This document shows, one piece after another, positions 789 to 54,540 of a DNA stretch of 64,000 bases. The translations under genes were made by a program, and so were the position numbers. The notes under the pieces are model-generated. The model saw only the letters and a program-made list of their open reading frames with translations, made no database searches and was not told the DNA's origin. Position 1 is the first letter of the stretch. Each line of letters opens with the position of its first letter. The DNA is from Ktedonobacterales bacterium (GTDB lineage: Bacteria > Chloroflexota > Ktedonobacteria > Ktedonobacterales > JADMIN01): positions 80 to 64,079 of the forward strand of contig DASTKI010000165.1 in NCBI GenBank assembly GCA_035716045.1, given 5' to 3'.

Positions 789-822
789 CTCCCTCTCCCC
801 ATGGGAGAGGGAGCCAGGGGCC
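789..822 (+). repeat. Family A palindromic repeat (ccctctccc-loop-gggagaggg plus G-rich tail), copy 1
   Basis: ctccctctccc/cat/gggagagggag forms a perfect 11-bp stem followed by ccaggggcc. It lies between the stop of 833..2599 and the start of 1..782. Confidence 0.85.
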
Positions 823-832
823 GCCGCCCGCC

Positions 833-2599
833 CTATCGCCGCCACGACTGCCCGCCAGGCCCACCACCTGGCCCCTCCGGCGCGGATGGCCACAGCGGCG
901 CAGCTCCTTGCTGCGCGCCCGGCGACCCCGGCTGCGGCGTGGGCGGCTGCGCGCCCGACCATTGTGCGGGTCGCCTGCCCTCCGCGGGCCACAGCGGCGC
1001 GCCCGGCGCCTGTACGGGCGGCGCGGGTTGAGCGGGCGGCGCCTGTCCTGGGCGCGCGCCCGGCGGCGGAGGCTGCCCCACTCCTTGTGGCGCTGGCTGT
1101 GGCGTTGGTGGCTGCCATGGAGCCGGGGGAGCGGGCGTGGATTGCGGCGGTTGCCACGGCCCGCTCGGCGGCTGCGCAAGCTGGCCACCCGGCGGCGTCA
1201 TCGGCTGGGATCCCACCGGGCGGGCGGGCGGATTGCCAATGGACGCCACCGGCCCCATCGCCGCCCTGGCGCCCTCACCCGCCGGCGCGCCTCCCGGCGT
1301 TGCCTGTGGCTTGCGCGACCCCATCCGCACCCAGATCGCCCAGCCGAACAGCGCCATCGCTCCAGTCTGCGTGATCCCCAGCAGAATCGCGTCCAGCCGC
1401 CCAACGCTCTGTAGCTGGATGTATTGCGAGAACGTCCCCGCCACCAGCAAGAACGCCAGCGACAGCACCGGCCAGCGCCACAGCCCCGACCGCCGGTCGC
1501 GCAGCGTGGAGAACTCCCAGACCACGATAAAGATGAACGGCTCCAGATAGTAGTAGGGCCACACCTGCTTGCTCAACATCGGCGTCGCCAGCGCGCCCAA
1601 CGCCACCAGCGCCCACACGTCCTCGTCACGCGCCGTCAGTCGTAGCCGCCGCGCCGCCAGCCACGTCACTACCGCTACCACCAGGATCACGGCATACATG
1701 TCCAGCCGCCGCGCCGCCGCGTCCACCAGATACCGCAGATGGTTGAGCGTCCCATCCGGCGAGCCCGTATACGCGAACAGCGCCCAGATCGAATCGCTGC
1801 CGATCTGCGCGCTGCCGCGCCACGAGACGAAGGTATACATCGCGTCCGCCCGGTCGAAGAGGAAGAACGGCGCCAGCCCCAGCGCCGCCACCAGCGCGCT
1901 CACCCCACCGAACGCCGCCAGCGTCCGCCATGCCCGCGTCAGCAGCAACAGCAGCCCCAGCGCGATCAGCGGGATCTGCGCCGTCGTCCGCGTCAGGAAC
2001 GCCAGCCCCGCCAGCAGACCCGCCAACTCCGGCCTATTCCGCTGCAGGAGCAAGACCGCCCCGAGCAGCAGGCACAGCATCAACGGCTGCTCGACGTGGT
2101 ACCAGATCGAATACGTCTGCCATGTCAACGGCGAGAGCGTCACCAGCGCATAGACCAGCAGCCGCTGCGCCTCCGGCGCGCCAGGATACAGCCGGTCCAT
2201 CACGCGCAGGCACAGATAGCCCAGCGCCGGGACCAGCACGATGAACGGCAGCGTTACGAACGTGATCAGCTCGCCATAATTCCCCGCGAACCCCAACGTC
2301 CGCGCCAGTCCCAGTAGCGGCGTCATCAGGAAGATGCTCAGCGGCGGATTGTAGTTTGGATACGTCAGGTCAGCCCGCACCGCGTACATCTGCCACACCT
2401 GCCCGCGCAGGATGTAGTCCGCCGACTTCAGGAAGAAGTTCGTCAGGTCGCTGTCAGCGATCGTCACTACGGCCCGCGTGCCGCGCACGATCGAGGTCGC
2501 GCCCAGCAGCAGGGAGATCGCCGTGACCAGCGCGAACATCCAGCGCGGCGCCCGCACGGGCACATTGGCGGAAGCGGCATCTGGGGCGGGTGATCGCAT
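833..2599 (-). CDS. Polytopic membrane protein, probable GT-C glycosyltransferase, with a long Pro/Gln-rich C-terminal tail
   Basis: ORF 833..2875 trimmed to ATG 2599 (MRSPAPDAAS...). The upstream extension reads through two family A repeats and is not credible. The body has at least 10 hydrophobic segments. The last ~190 aa are low-complexity PPxxPWQPP-type sequence. Confidence 0.6.
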   Translation of the reverse strand: MRSPAPDAASANVPVRAPRWMFALVTAISLLLGATSIVRGTRAVVTIADSDLTNFFLKSADYILRGQVWQMYAVRADLTYPNYNPPLSIFLMTPLLGLARTLGFAGNYGELITFVTLPFIVLVPALGYLCLRVMDRLYPGAPEAQRLLVYALVTLSPLTWQTYSIWYHVEQPLMLCLLLGAVLLLQRNRPELAGLLAGLAFLTRTTAQIPLIALGLLLLLTRAWRTLAAFGGVSALVAALGLAPFFLFDRADAMYTFVSWRGSAQIGSDSIWALFAYTGSPDGTLNHLRYLVDAAARRLDMYAVILVVAVVTWLAARRLRLTARDEDVWALVALGALATPMLSKQVWPYYYLEPFIFIVVWEFSTLRDRRSGLWRWPVLSLAFLLVAGTFSQYIQLQSVGRLDAILLGITQTGAMALFGWAIWVRMGSRKPQATPGGAPAGEGARAAMGPVASIGNPPARPVGSQPMTPPGGQLAQPPSGPWQPPQSTPAPPAPWQPPTPQPAPQGVGQPPPPGARPGQAPPAQPAPPVQAPGAPLWPAEGRRPAQWSGAQPPTPQPGSPGAQQGAAPLWPSAPEGPGGGPGGQSWRR

Positions 2600-2690
2600 A
2601 TTGTCTGTTATCCTCGCACTCCGCGCCGTCCACAACCCGCTCCGCCCTAACAAGCGAATGCGCGCCATCTCCTGCCCGCTTGCGTCGCGG

Positions 2691-2727
2691 CCCCTCTCCC
2701 CACAAGGAGAGAGGTAGGGGGTGAGGC
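2691..2727 (+). repeat. Family A palindromic repeat, copy 2
   Basis: cccctctccccacaaggagagaggtagggggtgaggc. Confidence 0.85.
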
Positions 2728-2862
2728 CCGGCGCCCCATGCGACCGCGCGCGCTCCACGCGCGCAGCCGACATCCGAAGCGAGTGTAGCACACCTCTGGC
2801 CAGCCGCGCGCGCCGCCTGCCCCATCGGGCCAAACTCGCCAAATCCCGCGCCCACAAAAAGG

Positions 2863-2899
2863 CCCCTCTCCCCAAAGGGAGAGGGGGTTGGGGTGAGGT
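2863..2899 (+). repeat. Family A palindromic repeat, copy 3
   Basis: cccctctccccaaagggagagggggttggggtgaggtc. Confidence 0.85.
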
Positions 2900-2905
2900 C
2901 TGCCC

Positions 2906-3493
2906 CTACCATACCCGCGGCAGCCGCTCCGCCAGCGCGCGCCGCCATTCCGCCGACGCGTCCGCCCGCACCAGCCAGCCGCCGACACCCAGCGCCAGCC
3001 CGGCGCCTGCGATCCACACGCTCCAGGCGATCTCCTCTGGCCCCGGCGTCGCCAGCAGTTGCAGCACATCAGGCCCGAGCCGCATCGCGGCGCCCGCCAG
3101 CCCGCTCTCGGGATATGTCCGCCACCATATGCCCACCGCCACGATCAGCGCCACCACTACCCCCACCAGGCGCAGGCCTGGCCCGCGCCAGAATACCGCC
3201 CGCGCCTGCCACGTCGCCATGCGCCGCATGCGCGCGCGCGCCAACTCAGCCGCCCGCTGCGCCTCATAAGCCGCCACGCGCCGCATGATCTGGTCCGCCA
3301 GTTCCGATGGGACCTGCGCCCGCGCCATCGGGTCCGCCTCGCGCAGCGCCGGCTCCGCCAGCCGCAGCCGCGCCAGGTCCCGCCGACACCCAGCGCACCC
3401 CGCCAGGTGGCGCTCCAACTGGAGCGCCCCGCGCGCATTCAGCCGCTCATCCAGATACAGGTTCATCAAGACGCCAGCGCGCGCATGCCTCAT
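2906..3493 (-). CDS. Anti-sigma factor (zf-HC2 type, single TM)
   Basis: N-terminal LDERLNARGALQLERHLAGCAGCRRDL matches the HxxxCxxC anti-sigma zinc motif. There is a central TM (LVGVVVALIVAVGIWW). The ATGA start/stop overlap with the upstream sigma gene (3490-3493) suggests translational coupling. Confidence 0.75.
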   Translation of the reverse strand: MRHARAGVLMNLYLDERLNARGALQLERHLAGCAGCRRDLARLRLAEPALREADPMARAQVPSELADQIMRRVAAYEAQRAAELARARMRRMATWQARAVFWRGPGLRLVGVVVALIVAVGIWWRTYPESGLAGAAMRLGPDVLQLLATPGPEEIAWSVWIAGAGLALGVGGWLVRADASAEWRRALAERLPRVW

Positions 3494-4335
3494 GACCGCT
3501 CCTCCTCACCCGGCGTCTCCGCCATCCCTGACGCCTCGTGCCCACGCTCGAACCATGCGCGCAAACCCGCCTCGATGGAGTCAATCGTCGCTTGCAAGCT
3601 GGCGCGCAGATCATCCGCGCGCGACAACCCCTCGTCGCGCGCGCGCTCCAGGTCGCTCAGCCGCTCTTTAAGGAGCGCCCGCGCCCGGAAGAGGTGCGTC
3701 TTCACCGTCCCAATCGGCACGCGCATGACCTCGGCGATCTCCTCGTAGCTCAGCTCCTGCAAGTGCCGCAGCACCAGCGCGTAGCAGTATTTCGCCGGCA
3801 GCAGCGCGATCTCCGCGCGCACCGCCTCGCGCACCTCCGCCTCCGCGGCGCGCGCCAGCCCGCTGGCTAGCGCCCCCTGCTCACGCGCGCGCTCGGCGAC
3901 CATCTCCGCCCGCGCCGCCTCATCGCGCCGCCGCCCCTCGCTCACCTTCAGACAATGCCGGTACGTAATGCGGTACAACCACGTCGCGAAGCGCGCCTCC
4001 TCACGGAACCGCCCTAGCCCCTGCCACGCCGCCAGAAACACATCCTGCGTCGCTTCGCTCGCCTCCTCAGGATCCCGCAGCATCCGCAAGGCAAGCGCGT
4101 ACACCTGCCGCTGGTGCAGCCGCACCAGCGCCCCAAACGCCTCCTGATCGCCCGCACGCGCCCGGCCGATCAACGCCGCCTCGCTAGCCACCAGCGCGTC
4201 TCCGCGCGCCGCGTCGCCAGGGCGCGGCAGCGAGACGCCATCGAGGCCGCCCGCCGTCGCCATATAGCTTGTCACCCACTCATCCATACCGGGATGGAGC
4301 GGCTGACTCGAAGAAATGTTTCGCGCGTCGTCCAA
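3490..4335 (-). CDS. ECF-type RNA polymerase sigma-70 family factor
   Basis: Region 2 (QEAFGALVRLHQRQVYALALRMLRDPEEASEATQDVFLAAW) and region 4 HTH (LSYEEIAEVMRVPIGTVKTHLFRAR). The true start may be an internal Met (4287 or 4263). Confidence 0.85.
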   Translation of the reverse strand: MDDARNISSSQPLHPGMDEWVTSYMATAGGLDGVSLPRPGDAARGDALVASEAALIGRARAGDQEAFGALVRLHQRQVYALALRMLRDPEEASEATQDVFLAAWQGLGRFREEARFATWLYRITYRHCLKVSEGRRRDEAARAEMVAERAREQGALASGLARAAEAEVREAVRAEIALLPAKYCYALVLRHLQELSYEEIAEVMRVPIGTVKTHLFRARALLKERLSDLERARDEGLSRADDLRASLQATIDSIEAGLRAWFERGHEASGMAETPGEEERS

Positions 4336-4402
4336 CTCGCCTGCCTGCGTCTCTCATGACCGCTCGCCACGCTACTCGCGCCGAACCCGCCCCTCCACGC
4401 GC

Positions 4403-4440
4403 CCCCTCTCCCTGTGGGAGAGAGGGCCGGGGGTGAGGTC
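4403..4440 (+). repeat. Family A palindromic repeat, copy 4
   Basis: ccccctctccctgtgggagagagggccgggggtgaggtc, upstream of the sigma factor gene. Confidence 0.85.
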
Positions 4441-4640
4441 GCCCCCATCGTACACCATCTGGCATACCATGGCTACCAAGGGAGCGCGGCTACATAGTCT
4501 TTCCATGCTCACGGACAGCGGACCTTGCGCAAGCGCGGCGCCTTACGATACGGATGCGCCGCGCAACGCCACATCCCATTCACCCATGCGCCACGAGCGT
4601 GGCTCTCGCGGAGGGATACGCAAACACAGCGCGCCATCAT

Positions 4641-5291
4641 TCAGCCAGCGCCCTCGGCATCCGCAGTGGCATGTTCCTCAAGCGCTGATCGCAGGAGCGC
4701 GCTCGCCGACCAGCCCATCAGTTCGACCGCCTCCTCACGGGATAGCCCGGCGACATCCGTCAGCCAGACGAGCGCCTCGATCCCTACGGCGCTCCTGATC
4801 GCGAGCGCGAGCCTGTGGAGTTGCGGCTCCGGCAGCCGCCCGCGCAGCGGCGCGAGCGCCTCCTCGATCCAGACGACCGCTCGCCCTGTGCGGAACGGCA
4901 AGTCGGGGCGCGCGGCGCCAGCGCCGTCGTCGGCCTCGTCACGCTCGAGTGAGAGCCGGAGTTGGGCGCGCAGTTCTGGCTCATGCTCGACGATCAGGCG
5001 CCCAAGCGCTTCGACAGCCGCCGCCAGGCGCGCCTCCGGGTCCTGCGACGTGTGCTCCGGCAGGAGCGACGGCGCCGTGACCTGAGGGAACGTCGCAACC
5101 AGCAGCGCGCGCTGGTTCGGGAAATAGCGATACGCGGTCGTGCGCGACACCCCAGCCGCGTCGGCCGCCTGCTCAACCGTTGGCGTCACGCCCTGGGAGA
5201 GCAGCTCGCGCGCGGCCTCGACGAGTGCCCGGCGTGTGCGCGCTTTCTGCTGGACACGCCCAGTGCGCTCATATGGCATTGACATACTCAT
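4641..5291 (-). CDS. TetR family transcriptional regulator
   Basis: The 406-aa ORF 4641..5861 trimmed to MSMSMPYERTGRVQQKARTRRALVEAARELLSQGVTPTVEQAADAAGVSRTTAYRYF (TetR HTH). The upstream part of the ORF is antisense to the cupin gene. Divergent from 5379..5864. Confidence 0.85.
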   Translation of the reverse strand: MSMSMPYERTGRVQQKARTRRALVEAARELLSQGVTPTVEQAADAAGVSRTTAYRYFPNQRALLVATFPQVTAPSLLPEHTSQDPEARLAAAVEALGRLIVEHEPELRAQLRLSLERDEADDGAGAARPDLPFRTGRAVVWIEEALAPLRGRLPEPQLHRLALAIRSAVGIEALVWLTDVAGLSREEAVELMGWSASALLRSALEEHATADAEGAG

Positions 5292-5378
5292 GATGATAGT
5301 ATAACATACCATCATGGTACTTGAGTCCCATGTTCTCGTTGATGCCCCCTCTAGCAGTCGAAGAGAAAGGAACCAGCC

Positions 5379-5864
5379 ATGAGTGGCGCTCCGCTCATGC
5401 TCGCCGCGCGCGATGGCGAGAACCTCTTCTATGACGGCGGCCTCTTGACGTTCAAGGCCACTGGCGCCCAGACCGACGACGCGCTGTTGCTGTTCGAAGT
5501 CCATATGCCTCAGGGCAAGGCCACCCCGCTGCACGTCCACCCCGATGCGGACGAAACCTTCTATGTGCTCGATGGCGAGGTGCGGGTACACGTCGAGGGC
5601 GCGGATGACCGGACCGTCTCCAAAGACAGCGTCGTCATGATTCCTCGTGGCGCGGCCCACGCCTTCATGGTCGTCTCGCAGGTCGCGCACCTGCTGGTAA
5701 TCATGACGCCAGCCAGCACGATCAGCGAAACCTTCTTCCGCCTGGCCGGTGAGCCCGCGCCCGACCCCACGCTGCCGCCGCCACCATCCAACATGGAGCG
5801 CTTCGCCGCCGCCGCCGCGCAATCGGGAATGAAGGTCCTCGGCCCGCCGCCATTCGGCCACTAG
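5379..5864 (+). CDS. Cupin domain protein
   Basis: PLHVHPDADETFYVLDGEVRV...IPRGAAHAF matches the two cupin motifs. An AGGAA-type RBS (gaaaggaacc) precedes the ATG. Confidence 0.8.
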   Translation: MSGAPLMLAARDGENLFYDGGLLTFKATGAQTDDALLLFEVHMPQGKATPLHVHPDADETFYVLDGEVRVHVEGADDRTVSKDSVVMIPRGAAHAFMVVSQVAHLLVIMTPASTISETFFRLAGEPAPDPTLPPPPSNMERFAAAAAQSGMKVLGPPPFGH

Positions 5865-6233
5865 GTGAGCCCGGCCCTCCGGTGGCGGCCGGCGGCGCCG
5901 GCGGCGGTCCCTGCCGCTCCAGCCACAGCGGATTCCCGCTCATACCGCGGCGACACGAAGTCGAAGATGGCTGGCTATGAGCTGTGGCCCCACCCAGCAT
6001 GGCCAGTCATGGCACAGGATGCGGTTCGCTTGGCATGTACCCTGATTTCACATGAGCCCTGCCCCACGTGTCGCTGCGATACCGAAGCAAATCTCCGGAT
6101 TAGGTGGACGCCGCGGTGTGATCGCATGAGACGCTCGAGCAAACGCTCTCATCTTTGATTCAAGCGCTTGCCGAGGCCGAAAGCGCGCTCTACCGCGGCG
6201 TGGCAGAGCCAGTCGCGGTGCTCCCCCAGGCGC

Positions 6234-6272
6234 CCATGTCAGCCCACCATGTCAGCCCACCATGTCAGCCCA
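6234..6272 (+). repeat. Perfect 13-nt x3 tandem repeat (ccatgtcagccca) in the leader of the secreted-protein gene
   Basis: Counted directly: three identical units at 6234-6246, 6247-6259 and 6260-6272, just upstream of the RBS aggaagag and GTG 6296. Confidence 0.95.
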
Positions 6273-6295
6273 ATACAGAAAGGAAGAGACTTTCC

Positions 6296-6853
6296 GTGAA
6301 GCGTTTGTTCCTTGGGAAGCGTTTGTTTCTTGGCAGTCTGCTCGCTGTGACGCTAGTCGCCGCCCTGGCGATCAGCCGCGTCCAGGCGGCACATGCGGAT
6401 ACCACGAATCCCGACTTCGGCAGCGTCTTGTCGGCGATTGACCGCACCCAGCAGACCAATGCAACCCTCGCGAGCCTCTCCGGTGTCGTTGCAGGCGATA
6501 TCAGCCTTGTCAATGTGGCGCCACTCCTTCCGCCCAATCCGATCCTTCCGCCCAATCCGATCCTTCCGCCTAGCCCGATCCTCGCGTTCCATGAGGCAGT
6601 GGCCCGCAACGCAGTCGATATCCTGACGCTGCGGACAACGTTCACTAACCTGAATGTCCTCGAGCAGTCGAACTGCACAGACTGCACGCTGGGAACCCTT
6701 GACGGGTATCTCAGTGACCACGGTATCGCCTTGAATGACGTGGTCACGGCCGACCTGTCCGGCGCGCGGCTCACTGTGTACTACTTCATTCCTACGGAAC
6801 CCTGCGTTCAAAACCCGCTGAGCGCCTGCGACGAGCCGGGACTCAGCGGCTAG
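6296..6853 (+). CDS. Secreted hypothetical protein with internal tandem repeats
   Basis: GTG 6296 is in frame with ORF 6155..6853 and preceded by gaaaggaagag. Signal-peptide-like KRLFLGKRLFLGSLLAVTLVAALAISRVQAAHA. An 18-nt duplication gives KRLFLG x2 and an 18-nt x3 repeat gives PPNPIL/PPNPIL/PPSPIL. Locally lower GC. Confidence 0.55.
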   Translation: MKRLFLGKRLFLGSLLAVTLVAALAISRVQAAHADTTNPDFGSVLSAIDRTQQTNATLASLSGVVAGDISLVNVAPLLPPNPILPPNPILPPSPILAFHEAVARNAVDILTLRTTFTNLNVLEQSNCTDCTLGTLDGYLSDHGIALNDVVTADLSGARLTVYYFIPTEPCVQNPLSACDEPGLSG

Positions 6854-7083
6854 CGCTGGCTAGCGGCGCGATTTGGGAGCCGTGAGCGGAGACTTCCAGC
6901 CCGGATGGTGCGCGAGTAGCGGGACGCACGAGCATATCATTGGATCGAGGCTGGACCGAGGCGCCCGGGAGGAGGCGTAGGCGCGCTCATCGCCCGCTAC
7001 CCACCCGAAGAGGCCTGAGCCACTGCCTCAAAGCGACCGCTCCGCGCAAACAGGCAAGCGCGACCCGAAGAATATCTGAACAA

Positions 7084-7121
7084 TCGAACGGCCCTGAGAG
7101 CATGCTCTCAGGGCCGTTCGA
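7084..7121. repeat. 38-nt perfect palindrome (possible terminator or operator)
   Basis: tcgaacggccctgagagca|tgctctcagggccgttcga; the two arms are exact reverse complements. Intergenic, with no T-tract. Confidence 0.9.
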
Positions 7122-7459
7122 TGTCTGAGAGCGACCAGGCGGGATTTGGTGGACGCCGAGCGCCACCCATCCGATCCAGATCGCCGCTGCGCGCTGTACT
7201 ACTGCTGATATACTGAAGGGTCGGTTTTCACAAATCATCTGGCGCGCCATCGTGTCGCTGTCAGGAAGAAGGAGCCGCCGCCATGCGCCCGCCCGCGACC
7301 ATCATACTGCTCAACGGCGTGCGGTACGCGACTTCATCGCCCATCACGCCCCCACGGCGTTTGGTCTCCTCCGCCAATCGCCGCCCCCACTGCCGTAGGG
7401 ACAGGACCAGGCGCCACATGCTCTTGAGATGATCGCGCGGATGGAAAGGAAGAGAGGCG

Positions 7460-7975
7460 ATGCAGTTCCCGGCGATCGTCATCGTTCCTGCCCAGAGCAA
7501 CAATGTCGTGGCGGATGTCACGCGCCTGATGGAACCATATGATTTCGCGCGAACCGTACCGCCGCGCAAGGAATATGTGCCGCAAGATGAGCTCGACTAT
7601 CTGCTCGAGGTCTACGGTCCGTACGGGCTCCACCGCGACAACGTGGAGGCGGTCGTGGCCGAGCTGGAAGAGGATACAGGCTTCGAGTGTGGACACGATG
7701 AAGGCGGATTCTGGTATATGACCACGGACAATCCCCAGGGCAAGTGGGACGGTTGGATGCTGCAGAGCCTGCAGACCGACTCCTGGCCGGCCACGGCGGC
7801 TCTGCCCGAGCGTCTCAATCCCGCTGCCATCGTCACGCCAGATGGCATTTGGTATGACTTAGAGGCGCGGTGGGACATGAGCGACGAGCAGAAAGAGGCG
7901 CTGCGGGCACGCGCCGCCGAACGCCTGGCGCAGTACCCATCTCATCTGGCAGTCCTGTTGCATTGCCACAGCTAA
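7460..7975 (+). CDS. Hypothetical protein
   Basis: 171-aa ORF with an RBS (ggaaaggaagagagg) before the ATG, acidic soluble composition and no antisense competitor of similar quality. No family recognised. Confidence 0.55.
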   Translation: MQFPAIVIVPAQSNNVVADVTRLMEPYDFARTVPPRKEYVPQDELDYLLEVYGPYGLHRDNVEAVVAELEEDTGFECGHDEGGFWYMTTDNPQGKWDGWMLQSLQTDSWPATAALPERLNPAAIVTPDGIWYDLEARWDMSDEQKEALRARAAERLAQYPSHLAVLLHCHS

Positions 7976-8054
7976 GCTACCAGCCATTCAGGCTCCCGAG
8001 CGGCTTAGTCAACGCATCACCAGTAGCTGTAGCGCTCGACTTCCGAAAACGCTT

Positions 8055-9410
8055 TTAGCCCTCCAGCAGCAGCGACTCCGGATCCTCCACCAGCTCCTTG
8101 ATGCGGACCAGGAAGCGTACCGCCTCGTTCCCGTCCACAATGCGGTGGTCGTACGACAGTGCGACGTACATCATCGGATGGACGACCACCTGCCCATTCA
8201 CCGCGACCGGGCGCTCCTGGATCTTGTGCATGCCGAGGATGCCGACCTGCGGCCCGTTCAGGATCGGCGTCGAGAGCAGCGAGCCGAAGACGCCGCCGTT
8301 GGTGATGGTGAACGTGCCGCCGCGAATGTCCTCCAGGCTCAGCTGGTTCTTGCGCGCCTTATCGGCGAAGACCGCGATGCGTCGCTCGATCTCGGCGAAC
8401 GACATCCGGTCCGCGTCGCCCAGCACTGGCACCACCAGCCCCTCCTCCACGCCGACCGCGATACCGATATCGTAATGGCGCTTCAGCACCATCTCATCGC
8501 CCTGGATCTCGGCGTTCAAGCGTGGGAAGGCCTTCAGCGCGCCGATCACCGCCTTGGTGAAGAACGACATGTAGCCCAGGCTCACGCCGTAGCGCTCCTT
8601 GAAGGCGTCGCGCCGTCGCTTGCGCACCTCCATCACCGCTGACATGTCAATCTCATTGAACGTCGTCAGCATCGCCGCCGTATGCTGCGCCTCCACCAGC
8701 CGCCGCGCGATGGTCTGCCGCCGCCGCGACATCCGCACCCGCTCCTCCCGTGGCGCCACCGCCGCAACCGGCGCGCTGACGAGCGGCTGAACGGGAGCTG
8801 GCGCTGGGCGTGCCGCGGGTTGTGGCGCTGGGTGCGGCATGGGCTGCGGCGTGGGCTGGGCAGGCTCAGGCGCCACGGGCGCGGCCTGCGTGGTGGTAGT
8901 AGTAGTGAGCGCCTCATGGCCCGCGAGATACGCCTCGACATCCTCCTGCGTGATCTTGCCTCCCGCGCCGGTCCCGCTGATCGCATGCAGGTCCACATGC
9001 CGCTCGGCGGCGATGCGCCGCGCCACCGGCGTCGCGCGCGCGCCGTTCATCGGCTGCGCCTCCGTGGCCGCCTCCGCGGGGGCTGGGGTCGCCGCTTGAG
9101 GTGGCGCTGCGGTCATCGGGACTGAAGTCGCCGCGGCGCCATCGCGCGTGGCGGACGCCTCGCGCTCCGGCTGGCCCTCGCTCACCCGCGCCAGGACCTC
9201 GCCCACGCCGACCGTCTCACCCTCGCCCTTGACGATGCTGGCGAGCGTCCCATCGCCCGGCGAGGTCACCTCGACATTGACCTTGTCCGTCTCCAGCTCC
9301 ACCAGCGGCTCGCCTGCCGTCACCGCGTCGCCCTCGCCCTTGCGCCATTTGCCCACCGTCGCCTCGACGATGGATTCGCCAAGCTGCGGGACCGTGATCT
9401 CAGTCAACAT
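8055..9410 (-). CDS. sucB: Dihydrolipoamide succinyltransferase (2-oxoglutarate dehydrogenase E2)
   Basis: Trimmed to [22 protein letters not shown]. Lipoyl motif [12 protein letters not shown]3-binding domain [33 protein letters not shown], and catalytic [10 protein letters not shown]. Confidence 0.9.
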
Positions 9411-12300
9411 ATTGTCCCTCGCGTGTCTCCACGCTGGCCGGCCGCTCGCCGCCGAGCGCCTCGCCCATGATTCTCGCCTGCTCCGCCGCGTGCGCATCGG
9501 GCAGGCCCTCCGCCGTGCTCGCTCGCTCGGGCCGGCCCACATAACGCAGCGTTACGCCCGCCGGCAATTGCGCCGCCAGCCGCGGCGCGATATAGTTCCA
9601 CGCCGCCATGTTGCGCGGCTCCTCTTGCAGCCAGACCACCTCGCCCAGATGCGGATAGCGCCGCAGCGTCGCCGCGAGCGCCGCCTCGGGGTATGGGTAC
9701 AGCTGCTCCACCCGCGCCACGGCGACCCACTCGCGCGATTCCGGCTGCCCGGCCATCGCCGCCTCCAGGTCCACCGCCACCTTCCCGCTGCAGAGAATCA
9801 GCCGCCGTACGGCCTCCGGCCGCGCGCGCGCATCATCCAGAACAGGCTGAAACGCCCCTTCAGTCAGGTCGCGCAGGCTCGATCCCGCCTTCGGATGCCG
9901 CAGCAGGCTCTTGGGCGTCATCACGATCAGCGGGCGCGGCGCCACGGCGAGCAGCTTCGCTTGCGCCCGCAGTAGGTGGAAGTACTGCGCCGCCGTCGTG
10001 CAGTTCACCACACGCAGATTGTCCTCAGCCGCCAGCTGCAGATAACGCTCTAGCCGCCCGCTCGAATGCTCCGGCCCCTGTCCCTCGTAGCCATGGGGCA
10101 GCAGCAGAGCAAGTCCTGGTAGCTGCCGCCACTTCGCCCGCGCCGCCGCGATGAATTGATCAATCAGCACCTGCCCGGCATTGGCGAAGTCGCCAAACTG
10201 CGCCTCCCATAGGACCAGCGCGCCTGGCGCGTGGACGCTGTAGCCATACTCGAAGCCCAGCGCCGCCGCCTCCGAGAGCGGGCTATTGTAGATCGCGAAC
10301 GAGGCTCGCGCCTGCGGCAGCGCCTGCAGCGGGATGTAGACCTCGCCCGTCTCGGCATCGTGCAGCGCGTCGTGGCGCTGGCTGAACGTGCCGCGCTCAG
10401 TGTCCTGCCCCGCCAGCCGGATCGGCGTGCCGTCCGCCAGGATCGCCGCGAAGGCCAGCGTCTCGGCAAGGCCCCAGTCAATCCCGCCCGGCTTCTCGAT
10501 CGCCTCGCGCCGTCGCGCCAGCAGCCGCTCCAGCTTGGGATTCGGCGTGAAGCCCTCCGGGCGCGCCAGCAGCGCCTCGTTATAGGCCCGCAGCGCGTCC
10601 GCGGACGCCGCCGTCTCCGCGCTCACCAGCGCGGGCGACTCTTCTAGCGTCGCCTGCTCCTCAGGCACATTCCCCGCCAGCAGCTCGGCGTGCGCCCGCT
10701 TCAACCGCTCCTGCGCCTCGCTCAGCATCGCCTCAGCGTCCTGCGGCGTGGCGACGCCCTCCGCCTCTAATGCCTCCGCGTAGAGCGCCCGCGTGGTCGG
10801 ATGTCCAGCGATGGCGGCGTAAAGGCGCGGCTGCGTGAATGCCGGCTCGTCGCCCTCGTTATGGCCCCAGCGCCGGTAGCCGATCAGATCAACCAGGAAG
10901 TCCTTGTGATAGCGCTGGCGGTAGGCGTGGGCCAGCGCGACCGCGCTGAGGCAGGCCTCGGGATCGTCGGCGTTGACATGGATGATGGGGATCTCGAAGC
11001 CCTTGGCTAGGTCGCTCGCGTAGAGCGTCGAGCGGCCCTGCTCGGCGGCGGTCGTGAAGCCGATCTGGTTGTTGGCGATGATGTGGACGGTTCCACCCGT
11101 CTGATAGCCCGGCAGCCGCGAGAGGTTGAGCGTCTCGGCCACTACCCCCTCGCCGGGGAACGCCGCGTCGCCGTGGATGGTGACGCACAGCGCCTTGTCC
11201 ACGTTCTGCCGCGGCGCGCCGCGCTCGCCGCGCCGCTCCTGCGCCGCCCGCGTGAAGCCCTCCACGACCGGGTTGACGAACTCCAGATGGCTAGGGTTGT
11301 GCGCCAGCGTCAGCGCCACCTGGGCTAGCTCACTCTCGCGCACCGTCCGTCGCGCGCCCAGGTGATACTTCACGTCGCCCGTCCAGCCGTAGTTGATGCC
11401 CGCCGAGCCCTCCGATGGGACCATCTCCTTGTCCGGCGCCGTGTGGAATTCCGAGAAGATCTTCACATACGGCTTGCCCAGGATGTGCGCCAAGACATTC
11501 AGCCGCCCGCGATGCGCCATGCCGATCAGGACCTCGCGCGTCCCGACCTCGGCCGCGTCGTGGATCAGCGCGTCCAGCATCGGGATCAGCGTGTCCGTCC
11601 CTTCGATGGAGAAGCGCTTCTGGCCAACGAATGCGCTGTGCAGGAAGCGTTCGAATGCCTCAACCTCCGCGAGCCGCCGCAGCAATTCGCGCCGCTCGTC
11701 CACCGCCAGCGGCTGGCGGAACACGCCCGATTCGACTGCGTCGTGCAGCCAGCCCCGCTCCTGCTCATCCTGGATGTGGGCGAACTCGTAGCCGAGCGTA
11801 TCGCAGTAGATCGCGCGTAGGCGGTCAATCGCCTCTAGCGCATCGCGCGCGCCGCGCGTATCGCCGCTGGGCCAGACGATGCTCGCGGGCAGCCGCGCCA
11901 GCGCGTCCTCGGTCAGCCCATTCGCTGCCAGGGTGAGCGTCTCTTTCCCTGGCGGCGGCGCACCCAGCGGATCGAGCCGCGCCGCTAGATGCCCGTACTG
12001 CCGGATCATGCGCGCCAGCTTCGCCGCCCCCACGACGACCCGGATCTCCCCATCCGTGACGCCCGCACCCGCCCTGGGCGCGACCGCCACAGGCGCGGCA
12101 GGCGTGGGATACGTGGGTGGCGCGCTCTCCACCGCGACGCTAACACGTGGCGGAGAAGCCGCCCGCTCGAAGAACGCGCGCGTCGTCGCGTCAACTGATG
12201 AGGGGTCTTGCAGGTAGCGCTCGTAGAGCTCCTGCGCATAGCCCGCGTTCGGGCCAAAGAAGGTATCCCAGCCATCCATGGGCGCCAATCCCCATCCCAT
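9400..12300 (-). CDS. sucA: 2-oxoglutarate dehydrogenase E1 component
   Basis: 966 aa. N-terminus [24 protein letters not shown], ThDP-enzyme length and motifs ([21 protein letters not shown]). Overlaps the sucB start by 11 nt. Confidence 0.92.
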
Positions 12301-12666
12301 CCGTCCTCACGCGAGATCGCGCTGTACCATCACGCCGCGCGCCTTCCCGAGCAGGACCATCTTTAACTATACCACCAGCGCCCCATACCGCCTGCCGCTT
12401 CCCTCACAATCGCATAACAAACGGGCGGTATGACTCGGCCTATTTCGCCATCCAGACCGACACCGTCTCTCCACCAGGGCTACCAGGGCGTCACCGCCGC
12501 CACGACCACCATCTACCCGCCCGGAAAAAAGTCAGGACTCGCCTCCTCCGTCAAGCTCACCACCTGAGCCGGAACGATCTACCTGTCACCCATCGTGGCC
12601 AGCGAAAGCAGCCTCTGACTGGCGCCCCGCCCCGTCCGCCACCGCCTTCGTGTCCCAGCCCGCGCA

Positions 12667-12713
12667 GGGGGCTTCGCGGCCGCCAGGCCCTTAGCCACGG
12701 CTTCAGCCGCCCG
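12667..12713 (+). repeat. Family B repeat (gggcttcgcggccgccaggcccttagccacggcttcagccgcccg)
   Basis: Near-identical to the units at 17607-17730. Abuts the stop codon of 12716..15061. Confidence 0.8.
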
Positions 12714-12715
12714 TC

Positions 12716-15061
12716 TCACCACCCAGCCGACAGCGGCGGCGTGATCGTCGCCGCGTCAAGCTCCGCCTGCGTGGGGCGCGCCAGCCCTGGCCCATATTCT
12801 CGCGAGAGCGGCAGGACCACCAGATCGAGGAACAACTCCTTCGCCGTCTCCAGCGTCAGCCCGCCAATCTGTGGCCGCCACCAGCTATGCGTCTCGCGCG
12901 AGACGATCACGCCCGGCGCCACATCCGCCCGCGCGCCCGATGGCAGCGGCGCCACCACCACCGCGCCCTCGCCCGCGACCCAGCTTCCCGGCGCGCAGGT
13001 CGCCCGCGCCGAGAGCGGCTTCCCGCCCGCTCCCTGGAACAGGAAATGGAAGTGATAGAGCGCCACCGCTGGCCCCGGCGGCGCCGAGCGCAGCGCCGCC
13101 CACAGCGTCACCAGCCGCGCCGGCAGCCCGCCGCCCGCTGGCAGGATGAATGCCCGGTCCAGCCGCAGCTCCCCATTCACCACCGCCAGCCCGCTCGCGC
13201 GCGGCCCCTCCGGGTTCGGCGCGACCGCCACTAGTGGATACGTCGCGCCCCGCGCTAGCGCCAGCCTGCCGATCTCGCGCGTCCCCGGCGCGCTCAGCAG
13301 CGCGCGGATCGCCAGCCCCGACCCATCCATCACCAGCGTCGGCGCCGCCCCATCCCCAGCCGGCGGCGTCAGCGCGCAGGCATCCGAGGTATACGCCGTC
13401 CACAGCGGCCCGCCGCCCGCCAGATTGTTTCCCCGCTGCGCCCAGTACAGCCCCATGAAGGGGTCGCCGGGATCGCCCGCCAGGAAAACCTGACGCGCAT
13501 GCAGCGCGACCGCCGCGCGCCCCGTCGCTGCCATCGCTGCCATATAGCTCGTCGTCGGGATTGCCCCCCACGTCGGCGCGGGCGACTCCCCGCTCGCCAG
13601 CGTCAGCGCGAACGCCCCCGTCAGCGCCACCTGCGCCACGATCACCACTCCCGCCACCGCCGCCATCGCCCCACCCGGCGCCGCCCGTCCCAACCTCCCC
13701 AGCCGTCCCAACCGCCCCAACCATGCATGCCATCCCCCCTCTCCTCTCCGGAGAGGGGGCCAGGGGAGGCCCCACACCCACCGCGCCGCCCGCCGCGCCT
13801 GCCCCGGCAGCCCCGCCACAAACGCGCCGACCGCCACATACAGCGGCGGCGTCACCACAAACGCATAGTGGACGTAGATCGGGCTCGCATGCCGCAGCGT
13901 CAGCGCCAGAAACACCGCAGGCGCGCCCACGACCAGCAGCCGCGCCCGCCACACGCGCCACCGCTCCCGCTCGCCTTGGGCCAGTTGAGGCCGCGAGAGA
14001 ATCCCCCAACCCTTCCTCGTCTCTCCCTCTCCCACGGGGAGAGGGGGCCGCCGGGGGGTGAGGTCCCGCAACGGCCGCCCTATCACCATCAGCGCCAGCC
14101 ATCCCAGGCTCAGCGCCACCAGCCCATCGAGCGCCGGCTCCAGCCAGGGCAGCGCCCGCGCCACCGCCGCATACCGCGTATCCGTCCCCAGCCAGTCCCA
14201 TGGTCGCGGCCCTAGCGCCGCGCTGATCTGCTGGACAGCCTGCCCGTCCAGGGCCCGCGGGGTCGCCAGATACGCCAGATAGATCGGCAGGTCATAGCCA
14301 TGGCTGGCCACCTCGAAGAGCGTGGTTGGGATATACAGCGCCAGCGCGCCCGCCACGCCGAGGTAGAAGTCGTACCACGTCACCGCCTCCCAACCCATCG
14401 CCAGACCCACCACGCTCAAAGGCAGTAACGCCGCCGTGATCGGGTGGACCTGGACCGCAGCCGCCATCAGCAGCGCATGGGGGATGAACCAGTGCCGCCG
14501 TCGCTCGACCATCCCCAGATGCAGCGTATAGAGCGCGCCGATGACCAGCGGCAGCACCAGACACTGCTGCCAGATGAACCCGCCCAAGTACGTATCATAG
14601 AGCGCCGTCGCGAACAGCAGCCCGCCCGCCAGCGCCGCCCACCGCCCAAACGCCCGTTCCGTCCAGATATACAGCAGCCCCACCGCCACCACATTCGCCA
14701 TCGCCTGGACCAGCGTCCATCGCTGCGGGTCATTGGCGAAGGGGTACAAGAGCAGCGTGTAGAGCGAAGTGTTCAGCGCCAGCAGCGAGTTATAGATCCC
14801 CGTCCCCGGCAGCAGATGATCGTGCGCCGCCCGCGCCACCTCCAGATACAGCAGCGCGCTATCGCTATAGAACGGCGACCGCCCCAGCCAGGAGAGCCGC
14901 AGGAACGCGCCCACCGCCAGCGTCAGCCAGAACTGCCACTGCCGCGCCCACCCCGGCGTCCGCGCCCCCAGCCATGCCGCCGCGCGCCATCCCCACGCGC
15001 CCCACACCCGCGCCCGCGCCTTCCACGTCACCGCGTCCTTCACCGCCGCCATCGCTTCCAT
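12716..15061 (-). CDS. Polytopic membrane glycosyltransferase (GT39/ArnT-like N-terminal half) with a large extracytoplasmic C-terminal domain
   Basis: 781 aa. The N-terminal half has many TM segments and an early SPFYSDSALLYLEVAR loop typical of PMT_2/ArnT-type GT-C enzymes. It contains two in-frame family A repeat insertions and a GRLGRLGRLGR tract. Confidence 0.65.
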   Translation of the reverse strand: MEAMAAVKDAVTWKARARVWGAWGWRAAAWLGARTPGWARQWQFWLTLAVGAFLRLSWLGRSPFYSDSALLYLEVARAAHDHLLPGTGIYNSLLALNTSLYTLLLYPFANDPQRWTLVQAMANVVAVGLLYIWTERAFGRWAALAGGLLFATALYDTYLGGFIWQQCLVLPLVIGALYTLHLGMVERRRHWFIPHALLMAAAVQVHPITAALLPLSVVGLAMGWEAVTWYDFYLGVAGALALYIPTTLFEVASHGYDLPIYLAYLATPRALDGQAVQQISAALGPRPWDWLGTDTRYAAVARALPWLEPALDGLVALSLGWLALMVIGRPLRDLTPRRPPLPVGEGETRKGWGILSRPQLAQGERERWRVWRARLLVVGAPAVFLALTLRHASPIYVHYAFVVTPPLYVAVGAFVAGLPGQARRAARWVWGLPWPPLRRGEGGWHAWLGRLGRLGRLGRAAPGGAMAAVAGVVIVAQVALTGAFALTLASGESPAPTWGAIPTTSYMAAMAATGRAAVALHARQVFLAGDPGDPFMGLYWAQRGNNLAGGGPLWTAYTSDACALTPPAGDGAAPTLVMDGSGLAIRALLSAPGTREIGRLALARGATYPLVAVAPNPEGPRASGLAVVNGELRLDRAFILPAGGGLPARLVTLWAALRSAPPGPAVALYHFHFLFQGAGGKPLSARATCAPGSWVAGEGAVVVAPLPSGARADVAPGVIVSRETHSWWRPQIGGLTLETAKELFLDLVVLPLSREYGPGLARPTQAELDAATITPPLSAGW
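13734..13775 (+). repeat. Family A repeat, copy 5, in-frame inside CDS 12716..15061
   Basis: cccccctctcctctccggagagggggccaggggaggcccc, translated on the minus strand as ...GLPWPPLRRGEGGWH... Confidence 0.8.
14022..14064 (+). repeat. Family A repeat, copy 6, in-frame inside CDS 12716..15061
   Basis: ctctccctctcccacggggagagggggccgccggggggtgaggtc, translated on the minus strand as ...RDLTPRRPPLPVGEGETRKG... Confidence 0.8.
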
Positions 15062-19748: not shown

Positions 19749-19774
19749 GCGCCCCGCTTGCGCCCGCCCGCCGC

Positions 19775-53749: not shown

Positions 53750-53886
53750 TGCACGCCAGGAATCAATAATGGCGTGCAGAAGTACAAACCAAAGCGATAT
53801 TTCAACGAGGTAATCGCGTCATGGATCTTCTCCGCGAGCCACACGTCTCGCGCGTACCTCACCACATATCTACCGGTTTGCTGAAT

Positions 53887-54306
53887 TCACCTTTCTGTAG
53901 AATTATTGGTATGCCCCACGACCACATCGAGCGCGCCCTGCTCATCAAGCCAGAGCCCGATTACGCTCTCATGTGTGCCCAGCGACACAACCTGCTGAAC
54001 GCAGCGGCGAATTTGAGCAAGATGCTCCGCCTTAGTCGCTGGATTGGCTGAACATGGAGCATGCCCGACAACCGCAACAACTCGTGAGCGATGTGACTTA
54101 GCGCTCTCTTGAAGGCAGGTCTTGACCATAATCCACTCGGGGCTTACTTCTTCTGCGCTGAGTCTCTTGTCTGGTCCAAAGAGAGAGATATTGTCTACAT
54201 AGTCTGCATTGTATTGTTTTCGCATCCAGGTGGAGACTGGTTCCTGCACAAAGCCATCAGAGCAGTTGATCACTGCGACAAATCGTTCTGTTCCCACTGC
54301 GTACAA
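53887..54306 (-). CDS. Hypothetical small protein with CSD...HxxC motif pair (possible beta-carbonic-anhydrase-like zinc site; speculative)
   Basis: 139 aa. VAVINCSDGF and VVGHAPCSA lie about 67 residues apart, reminiscent of the beta-CA CxDxR...HxxC pattern but lacking the Arg. Start is TTG 54306 or GTG 54297. Confidence 0.45.
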   Translation of the reverse strand: MYAVGTERFVAVINCSDGFVQEPVSTWMRKQYNADYVDNISLFGPDKRLSAEEVSPEWIMVKTCLQESAKSHRSRVVAVVGHAPCSANPATKAEHLAQIRRCVQQVVSLGTHESVIGLWLDEQGALDVVVGHTNNSTER

Positions 54307-54360
54307 CTTTCCACTATACAGAGTGCGCGATACGCCAGCAGCGCAAGAATGACAAGAAAG

Positions 54361-54369
54361 AATATAGCA
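54361..54369 (-). promoter_or_regulatory. Candidate extended -10 element (TGcTATATT) for the island minus-strand gene pair
   Basis: Plus-strand aatatagca reverse-complements to tgctatatt, about 55 nt upstream of the ORF start. Confidence 0.3.
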
Positions 54370-54405
54370 TACAGTATTTGAAAGCGCCAGCGCTATGGCA
54401 GGTTA

Positions 54406-54457
54406 TTCTACGTCACAGCGATACTGGCCATCTGCCCCCTACCTCCAGACCATCTGA
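54406..54457 (+). pseudogene. Displaced, frameshifted copy of the histidine-phosphatase 3' end (attR-like)
   Basis: Aligned base by base to 49229-49281: 5 substitutions, all at third codon positions and all G/C to A/T, plus a 1-nt deletion in the C6 tract. The last 27 nt are otherwise identical through the TGA. Confidence 0.8.
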
Positions 54458-54509
54458 GCCGCAAGCCCTTGACGGCTGCTGTGGTCGGTGGCCAGGCGCA
54501 GACCTCATC

Positions 54510-54540
54510 CCCTCGCCTCTCTGCTTGAGAGGCGAGGGGG
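54510..54540. terminator. Perfect 13-bp stem / 5-nt loop hairpin (family A-related), candidate bidirectional terminator
   Basis: cccctcgcctctc tgctt gagaggcgagggg. Lies between the phosphatase 3' remnant and the convergent cupredoxin gene. No U-tract. Confidence 0.5.

Follow-up and report, generated by a model that had tools for sequence, protein, structure and literature searches.

The repeat known as BoxC, PIT (potential intrastrand triplex) or TMECO, a G/C-rich class II triplex motif, is on record for E. coli and further Proteobacteria (Holder 2015, PMC4666352, where earlier studies by Bachellier and by Hoyne and Maher are cited). The TMECO pattern itself was reported in Proteobacteria, with other G/C-rich triplex motifs in Cyanobacteria, and TMECO loci were found to be unstable in E. 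coli; no evidence of a stable TMECO triplex in double-stranded DNA or in vivo was found (Holder 2015, PMC4666352). According to work cited in PMC4666352, PIT elements act neither as promoters nor as terminators in E. coli. The family is widespread and highly conserved, and still has neither a known function nor a known copying mechanism. Palindromic repeats of the form CCCTCTCCCXX(X)GGGAGAGGG are also present, in about 100 unevenly distributed copies, in Enterobacter sp. 638 (PMC2869309).

A related element, here called Family A, was followed up in a stretch of 64,000 nucleotides from a Ktedonobacterales bacterium (Chloroflexota; contig C165 of its MAG), referred to below as the window. With a probability of about 0.65, Family A would be the Chloroflexota form of BoxC/PIT/TMECO, selfish or neutral, with its orientation set by strand and with replication-linked gain favoured over selection. 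On this identification, which an earlier sequence-only reading had missed, BoxC/PIT/TMECO would be abundant in a second, distant phylum and its copies could lie in frame inside Chloroflexota genes. Also new is that the direction of the copies tracks a transcription-independent strand asymmetry, as seen in the skewed parts of the MAG and in two or more closed genomes.

The Repeat in the Window

Family A has the layout CCCCTCTCCCC-loop-GGGAGAGGGG-CC-GGGGGTGAGGTC and spans about 41 nt. A 41-position profile, trained on the copies in the genome and used to scan the MAG, detected 11 copies in the window, all of them on the plus strand, with E-values from 6e-9 to 0.02 (Table 1); the best E-value of the same profile in a reversed-genome control was 4.2. 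The exact core CCCTCTCCC-N3-8-GGGAGAGGG is found four times in the window and in none of 100 dinucleotide shuffles, which bears out the enrichment over a shuffled background. The sequence-only reading had listed at least 12 copies, and the motif is indeed visible by sequence at all of its coordinates, but the number by profile is 11: the site at 41124 was rejected with no profile match at E<10, and that at 54510, on the opposite strand and with a different palindrome, reached only E=4.2. The single orientation irrespective of gene strand, claimed in the same reading, was confirmed, with genes on both strands: minus-strand genes flank or contain most of the copies, and plus-strand genes adjoin or contain those at 19666, 19711, 20389 and 41283.

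Table 1. Copies of Family A in the window and the features beside or around them.
Feature	Coordinates	Strand	Remarks
Strand asymmetry, extreme	800..42000	.	plus-strand GC3 skew -0.2 to -0.65 in most genes, both orientations
Copy, hairpin intact, G-tail degenerate	789..820	+	between two minus-strand genes; E=2e-5
Copy	2691..2728	+	upstream of minus-strand GT87 gene; E=2.8e-6
Copy	2863..2900	+	6 nt from stop of zf-HC2 anti-sigma-like gene; E=4.8e-6
zf-HC2 anti-sigma-like gene	2906-3466	-	stop end at 2906
Copy	4402..4440	+	between ECF sigma and TetR genes, both minus; E=6.3e-9
Conserved 781-aa GT-C/PMT-like membrane protein, host gene	12716..15061	-	80% and 72% identity to full-length orthologs
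Copy in frame, antisense to the 781-aa GT-C-like gene	13735..13767	+	read as PWPPLRRGEGG
Probable decayed copy, same gene	13960..13996 (approximate)	+	counterpart of L002 copy
Copy in frame, same gene	14023..14065	+	read as DLTPRRPPLPVGEGE
Copy, diverged	15173..15210	+	between two minus-strand genes; E=0.02
Copy, diverged, first of direct tandem pair	19666..19703	+	E=0.0099
Copy, second of direct tandem pair	19711..19748	+	upstream of TIR gene; E=4.5e-8
Copy in open frame of TIR-domain protein, sense	20389..20428	+	read as PLSPQGEGAGGEA; E=2.1e-8
Copy, tail diverged	41283..41320	+	~190 nt past stop of plus-strand PMT_2 gene; E=0.0013

At least three copies lie in frame inside real genes, and such copies lengthen the proteins by 13-15 residues. 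In the 781-aa GT-C-like protein they occupy two variable loops; the second of the two copies is found in the ortholog L002 and is missing from L003, and L002 carries an intact tandem copy at the counterpart of the probable decayed one. The copy in the TIR-domain protein falls in a Pro-rich linker, its in-frame status being taken from the ORF alone. Coding signal was seen on both flanks of about 6 of the 135 copies in the MAG, and the intragenic share is about 4-6%. Annotators should note that, on one strand, every frame stays open through these 40-nt elements, with fused or extended ORFs as the outcome in high-GC genomes.

Structure, Distribution and Identity

The consensus of 135 copies, CCCCCTCTCCCC-AT-GGGAGAGGGGG-CC-GGGGGTGAGGTC, is that of a non-coding element in three parts: a C-rich block, a G-rich block that pairs with it in a hairpin of 10-11 bp, and another G-rich block, which is a mirror image of the first G-rich one. 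Covariation is seen at the pair that closes the stem (CG 38, UA 17, UG 11), and the DNA fold of the copy at 4402..4440, with the hairpin only, has -15 kcal/mol. When GGGGGTGAGG is reversed and set against GGAGAGGGGG, 10 allowed triads (G*G-C, A*A-T, T*A-T) result at the consensus level, and the single strand could thus fold as a hairpin with a purine-motif third strand; no covariation for this third strand was found in the copies.

About 135 copies were counted in the MAG, and the congeners have at least 77 to 150 or more. The three-block pattern was found in 104 of 251 sampled Chloroflexota genomes, with no match for the reversed pattern, and in the MAG itself it gave 40 matches against none in reverse. 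The copies are mostly intergenic and are arranged as singles, direct tandems or tail-outward inverted pairs. All eight inverted pairs in the MAG point tail-outward, seven of them with gaps of 8-44 nt; the doublets have inverted ends, the single copies do not. Of the target-site duplication that a MITE would have besides its terminal inverted repeats, one clean empty site (G009:129098 versus C100) gave no clear sign, at most TCA.

Judged by its letters and layout, Family A is the Chloroflexota form of BoxC/PIT/TMECO, and the family as such is not new. The consensus is close to the E. coli TMECO type B, CCCTCTCCCTGTGGGAGAGGGCCGGGGTGAGGGC, which the window-derived profile aligns over positions 4-38 of 41 (19.4 bits, E=0.004 at a 4-Mb scale). 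Compared with the TMECO pattern CCCTCNCCC N3-6 GGGNGAGGG N3 GGGNGAGGG, blocks 1 and 2 are exact and block 3, GGGTGAGGT, agrees in 8 of 9 positions with GGGNGAGGG; the longer arms of Family A make its spacing different. Both have the same three-block order in nearly the same letters (CCCTCTCCC / GGGAGAGGG / GGGTGAGG), a mirror third block in which A*A-T and T*A-T triads fall on the same pair of positions, and dispersed, mostly intergenic copies in tens to hundreds per genome, including tail-outward inverted pairs; copy number varies greatly among close relatives, and no transposase is known. Family A differs in its host phylum, in its longer arms with a shifted register (GG-AGA-GGGGG versus GGG-AGA-GGG), in a second loop of 2-3 nt, in ending with TC and in having some copies in frame inside genes. 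It also differs in being polar relative to GC skew, whereas for E. coli our own count of the single copies in Table 1 of PMC4666352 gave 8 leading-strand and 5 lagging-strand ones, i.e., no such polarity.

Orientation and Strand Asymmetry

The uniform orientation of the window does not extend over the genome: with C165 excluded, as in all counts given as outside this contig, 44 of 86 same-contig pairs agree (51%), and a 318-kb contig of a congener carries 14 plus and 21 minus copies, interleaved. What the orientation follows is skew. The strand with the blocks in the order C-G-G lies on the locally C-rich strand in 90 of the 135 MAG copies and, outside C165, in 79 of 124 (logistic LR p=0.0016; contig-flip permutation p=0.0002); the probability of a plus copy falls from 0.78 at a skew of -0.1 to 0.28 at +0.1, and where the absolute skew is at least 0.1, 19 of 21 copies are on the C-rich strand. 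The single-contig genome G273 has 76 of 86 copies on the C-rich strand (windows 40:6, p=3e-7; Spearman -0.705), and where copies deviate within its long plus domain, the skew is inverted locally. In G106 the direction is the same: plus copies prevail by 31:6 in negative skew and are outnumbered by 2:19 in mostly positive skew.

Gene direction has no such relation to the copies. Those in the MAG between co-directional genes are oriented with them in 30 cases and against them in 32, and in G273 43 of 86 agree with the majority gene strand. The skew in windows is unrelated to gene-strand bias (r=-0.01), GC3 skew agrees between plus and minus genes (r=0.82-0.84), and the whole-genome coding-strand skew is 0.007. 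Copy orientation tracks a strand asymmetry that is independent of transcription. All 11 copies of the window belong to its skewed stretch, and their co-orientation is explained by these 42 kb of unusually strong and uniform skew. In weakly skewed DNA of the same genus polarity is weak (20 of 35 in G009:C6), and six genomes of other families gave none (30:25), in a small sample with weak skew in which the profile missed many shorter variants. Skew is patchy in these genomes and not tied to a mapped origin or terminus, and in G106, whose genome has 3.0 Mb, the point at which it turns from negative to positive is about 1.65 Mb away from dnaA, so that the terms leading and lagging are not assignable.

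It has only the slightest probability that the 11 of 11 reflects chance or a local duplication history and that the elements are terminators or gene-tied RNA elements. Several copies do lie just past stop codons, the GC hairpin is stable, and 23 of the MAG copies fall in convergent intergenic regions against 8 in divergent ones. The abutment noted in the sequence-only reading stands for the copies at 789 (about 12 nt from the stop, 833, of a minus-strand GT87 gene) and 19666 (40 nt past the stop, 19626, of a plus-strand AMP-binding gene), and the copy at 2863 also abuts a stop (at 2906); the third case listed there fell away, as the 124-aa ORF ending at 41326 is without support as a gene. No support was found for the terminator role suggested in that reading: there is no T-run on either side of the hairpin (flank T 0.14-0.18), the position relative to gene ends is not consistent, the split by gene direction is 30:32, G273 has a divergent excess (23 versus 18 convergent), and PIT is reported to be inactive as a terminator in E. 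coli. As to chance, 11 of 11 has a two-sided probability of 0.001, and polarity of this kind is seen again elsewhere; as to duplication, the flanks of the window copies are unrelated, and they are therefore not segmental duplicates.

Gain, Loss and a Possible Link to the Replication Fork

A polar repeat with a hairpin and an asymmetric flank, whose inverted doublets resemble REPINs, recalls a REP/REPIN-type element moved by a RAYT (a Y1 HUH transposase) as single-stranded DNA into one replication strand, and the orientation of IS200/IS605 insertions is likewise polar relative to skew. This analogy, drawn by the sequence-only reading, is largely refuted and very unlikely to hold. That reading correctly saw no RAYT in the window. 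The one Y1_Tnp match in the MAG has DRVYL at the HUH position and F for the catalytic Tyr, so that it apparently lacks both; no Family A copy lies on its 110-kb contig, and orthologs of its class occur even in the relative G019, which is without the exact core palindrome. No Y1 HUH gene flanked by inverted copies was found in the MAG, which is 76% complete (absence is not proof), bracketing by copies was likewise not seen at any of about 30 Y1 loci in relatives, and Y1 gene numbers do not track copy number. The absence of a GT[AG]G-type (GTAG-type) head beside the palindrome, in the consensus and the flanks alike, is another point against a RAYT.

Compatible with the polarity, although unlikely, is that Family A comprises non-autonomous derivatives of a small cassette in which a DUF559 (Vsr-like) putative nuclease gene is bracketed by three-block repeats; the nuclease would nick the folded repeat and drive its copying. 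One to three full-length DUF559 genes were found in 9 of 10 repeat-rich Chloroflexota genomes examined, and the two with readable flanks, in G142 and G273, are bracketed by repeats with a hairpin and a mirror G-block. The sequence of these repeats, however, differs from that of the abundant family; a canonical DUF559 is missing from G106, with its 132 copies, and also from the MAG, where only a 21.9-bit fragment within a 636-aa ORF was seen.

The explanation that we favour is replication-linked gain. Family A would be a selfish or neutral dispersed repeat, a few copies of which are tolerated in frame in protein loops, and its C-G-G strand tends toward the locally C-rich strand. If skew reflects the direction of replication, one orientation with respect to the fork would be favoured in the gain of copies or in their survival, and this bias might arise from the element acting as folded single-stranded DNA during replication. 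More specifically, and as a tentative proposal somewhat short of even odds, BoxC-type repeats may be copied or fixed in a replication-strand-specific manner as folded single-stranded DNA at the fork, with the C-G-G strand entering one defined template. Of the replication link suggested in the sequence-only reading, the part that stands is that orientation follows skew and not genes; the uniform orientation does not hold over the genome (51% agreement within contigs), and the choice between gain and selection is inferred.

It is also conceivable, if improbable, that insertion occurs in either orientation and that forks stall at copies whose structure-prone G-rich strand occupies the more exposed template, with the loss of these copies. 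In vitro, polymerases are reported to be blocked by purine-motif triplex and by G4-prone strands; in E. coli, instability of TMECO loci is known, and the 229168 site shows one apparent deletion of the hairpin with a remnant of the tail left. Against such selection, its action over time predicts the oldest copies to be the most polar, and E. coli has no polarity. Biased gain is favoured because the youngest copies, near-identical to each other in G273, are the most polar, and the least polar are the old copies common to species of the window's genus, although the genomes also differ in how strong their skew is, which confounds this argument from age. Many copies of G000 and G009 are orthologous, at about 80% nucleotide identity; at two such sites the tail lies on opposite sides, so that either orientation can change after insertion or the sites were hit twice.

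The polarity makes the spread testable as replication-coupled single-strand gain versus selection on structure-forming strands. If replication-strand-specific copying is true, a repeat family orphaned for thirty years would gain its first mechanistic handle, and copy orientation could be used to trace fork direction and past inversions in weak-skew Chloroflexota contigs.

Comparison with Other Known Systems

The repeats of Enterobacter sp. 638 have a hairpin core identical to that of Family A and often occur in twos or threes near gene 3′ ends; they were described only as hairpins and presumed terminators, and their third block and orientation were not analysed (PMC2869309). REP, BIME and REPIN elements share with Family A the short GC-rich hairpins arranged as singles, tandems and inverted doublets, and the vertical persistence at orthologous sites, but Family A has no RAYT partner or GTAG-type head and does have a mirror third block. 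Rickettsia palindromic elements (RPE) are likewise tolerated in frame in protein loops; they are 100-150 bp long and unrelated in sequence, and Family A has an intragenic share of only about 4-6%. Single-strand transposition of IS200/IS605 was reportedly found by Ton-Hoang et al. in 2010 to be coupled to replication. Unlike these elements, Family A is without a transposase gene, defined ends or cleavage sites, and its link to the fork is drawn from skew only; it resembles them in an orientation bias that appears tied to the replication strand and in an active form that would be folded single-stranded DNA.

Family A in the window and in the genome

Family A, the repeat of about 41 nt whose C-G-G strand reads as a C-rich block, a G-rich block and a second G-rich block (the tail), is abundant in the MAG, and its orientation is independent of gene direction and linked to local strand skew. 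The MAG (3.97 Mb in 252 contigs, 76% complete, G+C about 68%) was searched with a profile that was seeded with the window copies and then refined on the genome; genes were called with a codon-bias caller made for the analysis. With the consensus CCCCCCTCTCCCCATGGGAGAGGGGGCCGGGGGTGAGGTCC, the profile found 135 loci at E<0.05 in the MAG, the best match in a reversed-genome control having E=4.2, and the density on the contig of the window is five times the MAG mean. Eleven copies lie in the window, where the exact palindrome core occurs four times, compared with none in 100 shuffles, and the repeat is thus over-represented against a shuffled background. Inspection of the sequence found the motif at all eleven sites that the sequence-only reading had listed as clear copies; the two that it had taken for diverged relatives, at 41124 and 54510, fell outside the family by the profile. 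The palindrome at 54501-54540, CCCTCGCCTCTC-TGCT-TGAGAGGCGAGGG, is a non-member (E=4.2, on the other strand) and borders a low-GC island. A scan of the window at the Rfam gathering thresholds returned no families.

The hairpin consists of 10-11 G/C base pairs and a loop of 3-4 nt, with a computed energy of about -15 kcal/mol as single-stranded DNA, and is followed on its 3' side by a 2-3-nt spacer, then GGGGGTGAGG, then TC. The loop-closing pair covaries (C-G 38, U-A 17, U-G 11), the remaining stem pairs being almost invariant, and neither the third block nor the lengths of the G-runs covaried detectably with the hairpin. Read in reverse, the tail is the purine arm with one A to T exception, and this mirror relation would give ten G*G-C, A*A-T or T*A-T triads. 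Copies are arranged singly, as direct tandems (19666/19711) or as inverted pairs, the latter with their tails outward in every case (8 pairs in the MAG, 7 of them with gaps of 8-44 nt, and 3 on a contig from a congener). The complementary strand is stop-free in all frames, which also explains many spurious ORF extensions. In G273, a single-contig Chloroflexota genome, some copies are regularly spaced, for example 198 nt apart (513138/513336/513534) or 232 nt apart (1210913/1211145/1211377), so the element is also carried in longer tandem array units. Several genomes of the phylum-wide pattern search contain symmetric, two-tailed copies (e.g., G091:C25:2091-2139), where the mirror block flanks one hairpin on both sides and the full three-block motif is present on both strands.

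Orientation and strand skew

The uniform orientation seen by the sequence-only reading was upheld within the window, where 11/11 copies are on the plus strand, and was lost beyond that contig: with it left out, 18/44 neighbouring pairs and 44/86 same-contig pairs were co-oriented, and a 318-kb contig of a congener carries 14 plus and 21 minus copies, interleaved. These counts rule out an orientation that is uniform across a replichore in the MAG and its genus. The same reading had held that orientation does not follow the genes, and between co-directional genes of the MAG 30 copies indeed run in the same direction and 32 in the opposite one. It had further proposed to plot orientation against GC skew, and with the skew measured in flanks of ±5 kb, the elements masked, the C-G-G strand was the locally C-rich strand in 90 of the 135 copies (79 of 124 without the contig of the window). 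Agreement rises with the strength of the skew, to 19 of 21 copies at |skew| >= 0.1; a logistic fit without that contig gave P(+)=0.78 at a skew of -0.1 and 0.28 at +0.1 (LR p=0.0016), and random flipping of whole contigs, again with it left out, gave p=0.0002. Polarity did not rise across the conservation classes of the MAG copies (26/40, 27/42, 26/42), and copies were not significantly enriched where the DNA is strongly skewed, the contig of the window left out.

The co-orientation of all eleven window copies is accounted for by the extreme skew of this DNA. Between about 0.8 and 42 kb, the plus-strand GC3 skew lies at -0.2 to -0.65 in most genes of either orientation, and about 15 of the only 28 genes in the MAG with a GC3 skew below -0.4 lie inside the window, the MAG-wide distribution being centred on 0. 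Within 800-42000, the genes at 4641-5690, 26915-29206 and 35946-38051 do not have this asymmetry. That the skew is a by-product of gene direction was ruled out by the coding-strand skew of the whole MAG, which is 0.007, by the correlation across contigs between the plus-strand third-position skews of plus and minus genes (r=0.84), and by the data from G273 described below. The asymmetry in the window may stem from a long stretch of replichore that has escaped rearrangement, or from another replicon or history.

Polarity in other genomes

G273, which belongs to another family than the MAG, is a single contig of 3.78 Mb with 120 near-identical exact copies, 100 of which were listed with their positions. 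Among the matches listed, the copies form one-strand domains, 44/46 being on the plus strand at 407-1348 kb and 15/15 on the minus strand at 2890-3061 kb. When the skew was sampled in sixty 20-kb pieces, 76 of 86 copies lay on the C-rich strand of their own piece; by piece, 40 were concordant, 6 discordant and 1 tied (p=3e-7; Spearman -0.705), and the rare minus copies in the plus domain sit in pieces whose local skew is inverted. Of the 86 copies, 43 matched the majority gene strand in orientation, piece skew and gene-strand bias were uncorrelated (r=-0.01), and the GC3 skews of plus and minus genes were correlated (r=0.82).

For G106, a single 3.0-Mb contig from the same genus as G273, the full copy list was merged from two complementary searches. 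Plus copies outnumber minus copies 31:6 at 1.35-2.10 Mb, where the skew is negative, and the ratio is 2:19 at 2.11-2.96 Mb, where the skew stays weakly negative until about 2.4 Mb and has turned positive by about 2.5 Mb. Both contigs have a patchy GC skew. The main negative-to-positive switch lies at about 2.45 Mb in G106 and about 1.39 Mb in G273, with dnaA at 0.80 and 0.19 Mb, respectively, the distance from switch to dnaA in G106 being about 1.65 Mb; either dnaA is off the origin, or these Chloroflexota follow an unusual skew convention or undergo frequent rearrangement. A small sample of copies taken from six genomes of other families, in which G+C is lower and the skew weak, showed no general polarity (30:25), and clear concordance within it was confined to the strongly skewed pieces of one genome, G068 (7:1).

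We infer that the skew marks the direction of replication, and that activity of the element in the form of folded single-stranded DNA leads to the gain or retention of copies in one orientation relative to the fork. Biased gain is favoured over later selection because polarity is strongest among the youngest copies (those of G273) and weakest among the oldest (those of the MAG genus), an argument that is confounded by skew strength.

Age, turnover and copies inside genes

A contig of a congener, G009, and the MAG share about 80% nucleotide identity, and many copies, one inverted pair included, are orthologous between them and hence old. At the one clean empty site, the copy is immediately preceded by the stop of a gene on the minus strand, and no clear target-site duplication was found at this single site. 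At one site, the hairpin seems to have been deleted with a tail remnant left behind. Two orthologous intergenic sites have the hairpin in common and the tail on opposite sides in the two congeners (see table), which may reflect more than one insertion at a hot spot, an ancestor with two tails that decayed, or flipping.

The minus-strand ORF of 781 aa at 12716-15061 is a real gene, since it has full-length orthologs in two other MAGs (80% and 72% identity). Its product is a GT-C/PMT-like membrane protein with no Pfam matches that is conserved in the three MAGs, and two of its variable loops contain in-frame copies, at 14023 (DLTPRRPPLPVGEGE) and 13735 (PWPPLRRGEGG). These two periplasmic or linker loops are mostly repeat copies. 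Both copies are also present in the closer ortholog, together with an intact tandem copy of which the window retains a decayed remnant; the more distant one is about 17 residues shorter at the repeat loops. The copy at 20389 falls in a TIR-domain protein, within its Pro-rich linker. A widespread in-frame lifestyle was rejected, as only about 6 of the 135 copies pass a two-flank coding test.

What spreads the element

Mobilisation by an IS200/IS605-RAYT transposase, an analogy drawn by the sequence-only reading, found no support in the search of the MAG and 40 relatives. The sole Y1-transposase-like gene of the MAG has, by our reading of its product, DRVYL at the position of the HUH motif and F at that of the catalytic Tyr; its contig, of 110 kb, is free of Family A copies, and its class also occurs in a relative without the exact core palindrome. 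Moreover, none of about 30 Y1 loci of relatives was bracketed by copies in the flanks scanned. As far as can be seen, the spreader is not a RAYT. The Y1-like protein of the MAG (159 aa; C157:41267-41596, L001:1399-1878, minus strand) is encoded beside a ClpC-like ATPase gene and apparently lacks both the histidines of the HUH motif (DRVYL) and the catalytic Tyr (RRFEAAL). Nearly all relatives sampled have an ortholog of comparable score and length, which suggests a Y1 fold that has been domesticated and is inactive.

A DUF559 nuclease is suggested, not decisively, as a partner of BoxC-type repeats. One to three DUF559 genes were present in 9 of 10 relatives, a sample of repeat-rich genomes only, with none in G106, and the MAG has no canonical DUF559. 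The two such genes whose flanks were examined are bracketed by three-block (hairpin-plus-mirror-G-block) repeats whose sequence is unlike that of the abundant family.

Orthologous sites with opposite tails (G009, congener; G000, the MAG) and DUF559 genes bracketed by repeats (G142 and G273, relatives)
Feature	Position	Counterpart or bracketing repeats
Opposite-tail site	G009:C6:134330	G000:C100:41763
Opposite-tail site	G009:C6:5287	G000:C100 about 1340
DUF559 nuclease gene (L131)	G142:C1:151054-151368	GGGGAGGG/GGGGTAGGG
DUF559 nuclease gene (L061)	G273:C1:554439-554759	130-nt array unit with CCCTCATCCC...CCTTCTCCC

Comparison with the BoxC family

A full-text literature search identified the three-block layout in Holder et al. 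2015 (PMC4666352), where the E. coli element known as BoxC, PIT or "TMECO" is described by the pattern CCCTCNCCC N3-6 GGGNGAGGG N3 GGGNGAGGG, its type B being CCCTCTCCCTGTGGGAGAGGGCCGGGGTGAGGGC. The Family A profile aligns with type B over positions 4-38 of 41 (19.4 bits), and Family A is therefore the Chloroflexota form of BoxC/PIT/TMECO, a known kind of element. The exact core was found in 12/12 congeners sampled (4-133 copies each). Most genera of that family have it as well, compared with 0/16 genomes from other families of the order. The full three-block pattern is present in 104 of 251 Chloroflexota genomes and 63 of 146 genera, the reversed-pattern control being zero in all, and a covariance model found 77 copies in one of four relatives and about 150 or more in each of the other three.

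TMECO has been reported with 3610 copies in 262 proteobacterial genomes (PMC4666352), and the same hairpin core occurs 100 times in Enterobacter sp. 638 (PMC2869309). In E. coli the element is intergenic, includes inverted pairs and is associated with local genome instability; its isolated strand forms a stable triplex in vitro, with none in duplex DNA or in vivo, and earlier work cited there found no promoter or terminator activity (PMC4666352). That paper contains no analysis of leading and lagging strands or of skew. When the single copies in its Table 1 were assigned by the textbook positions of oriC and ter, 8 fell on the leading and 5 on the lagging strand, i.e., the E. coli element has no such polarity. 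The Chloroflexota form differs further from TMECO of E. coli in its longer arms and shifted register.
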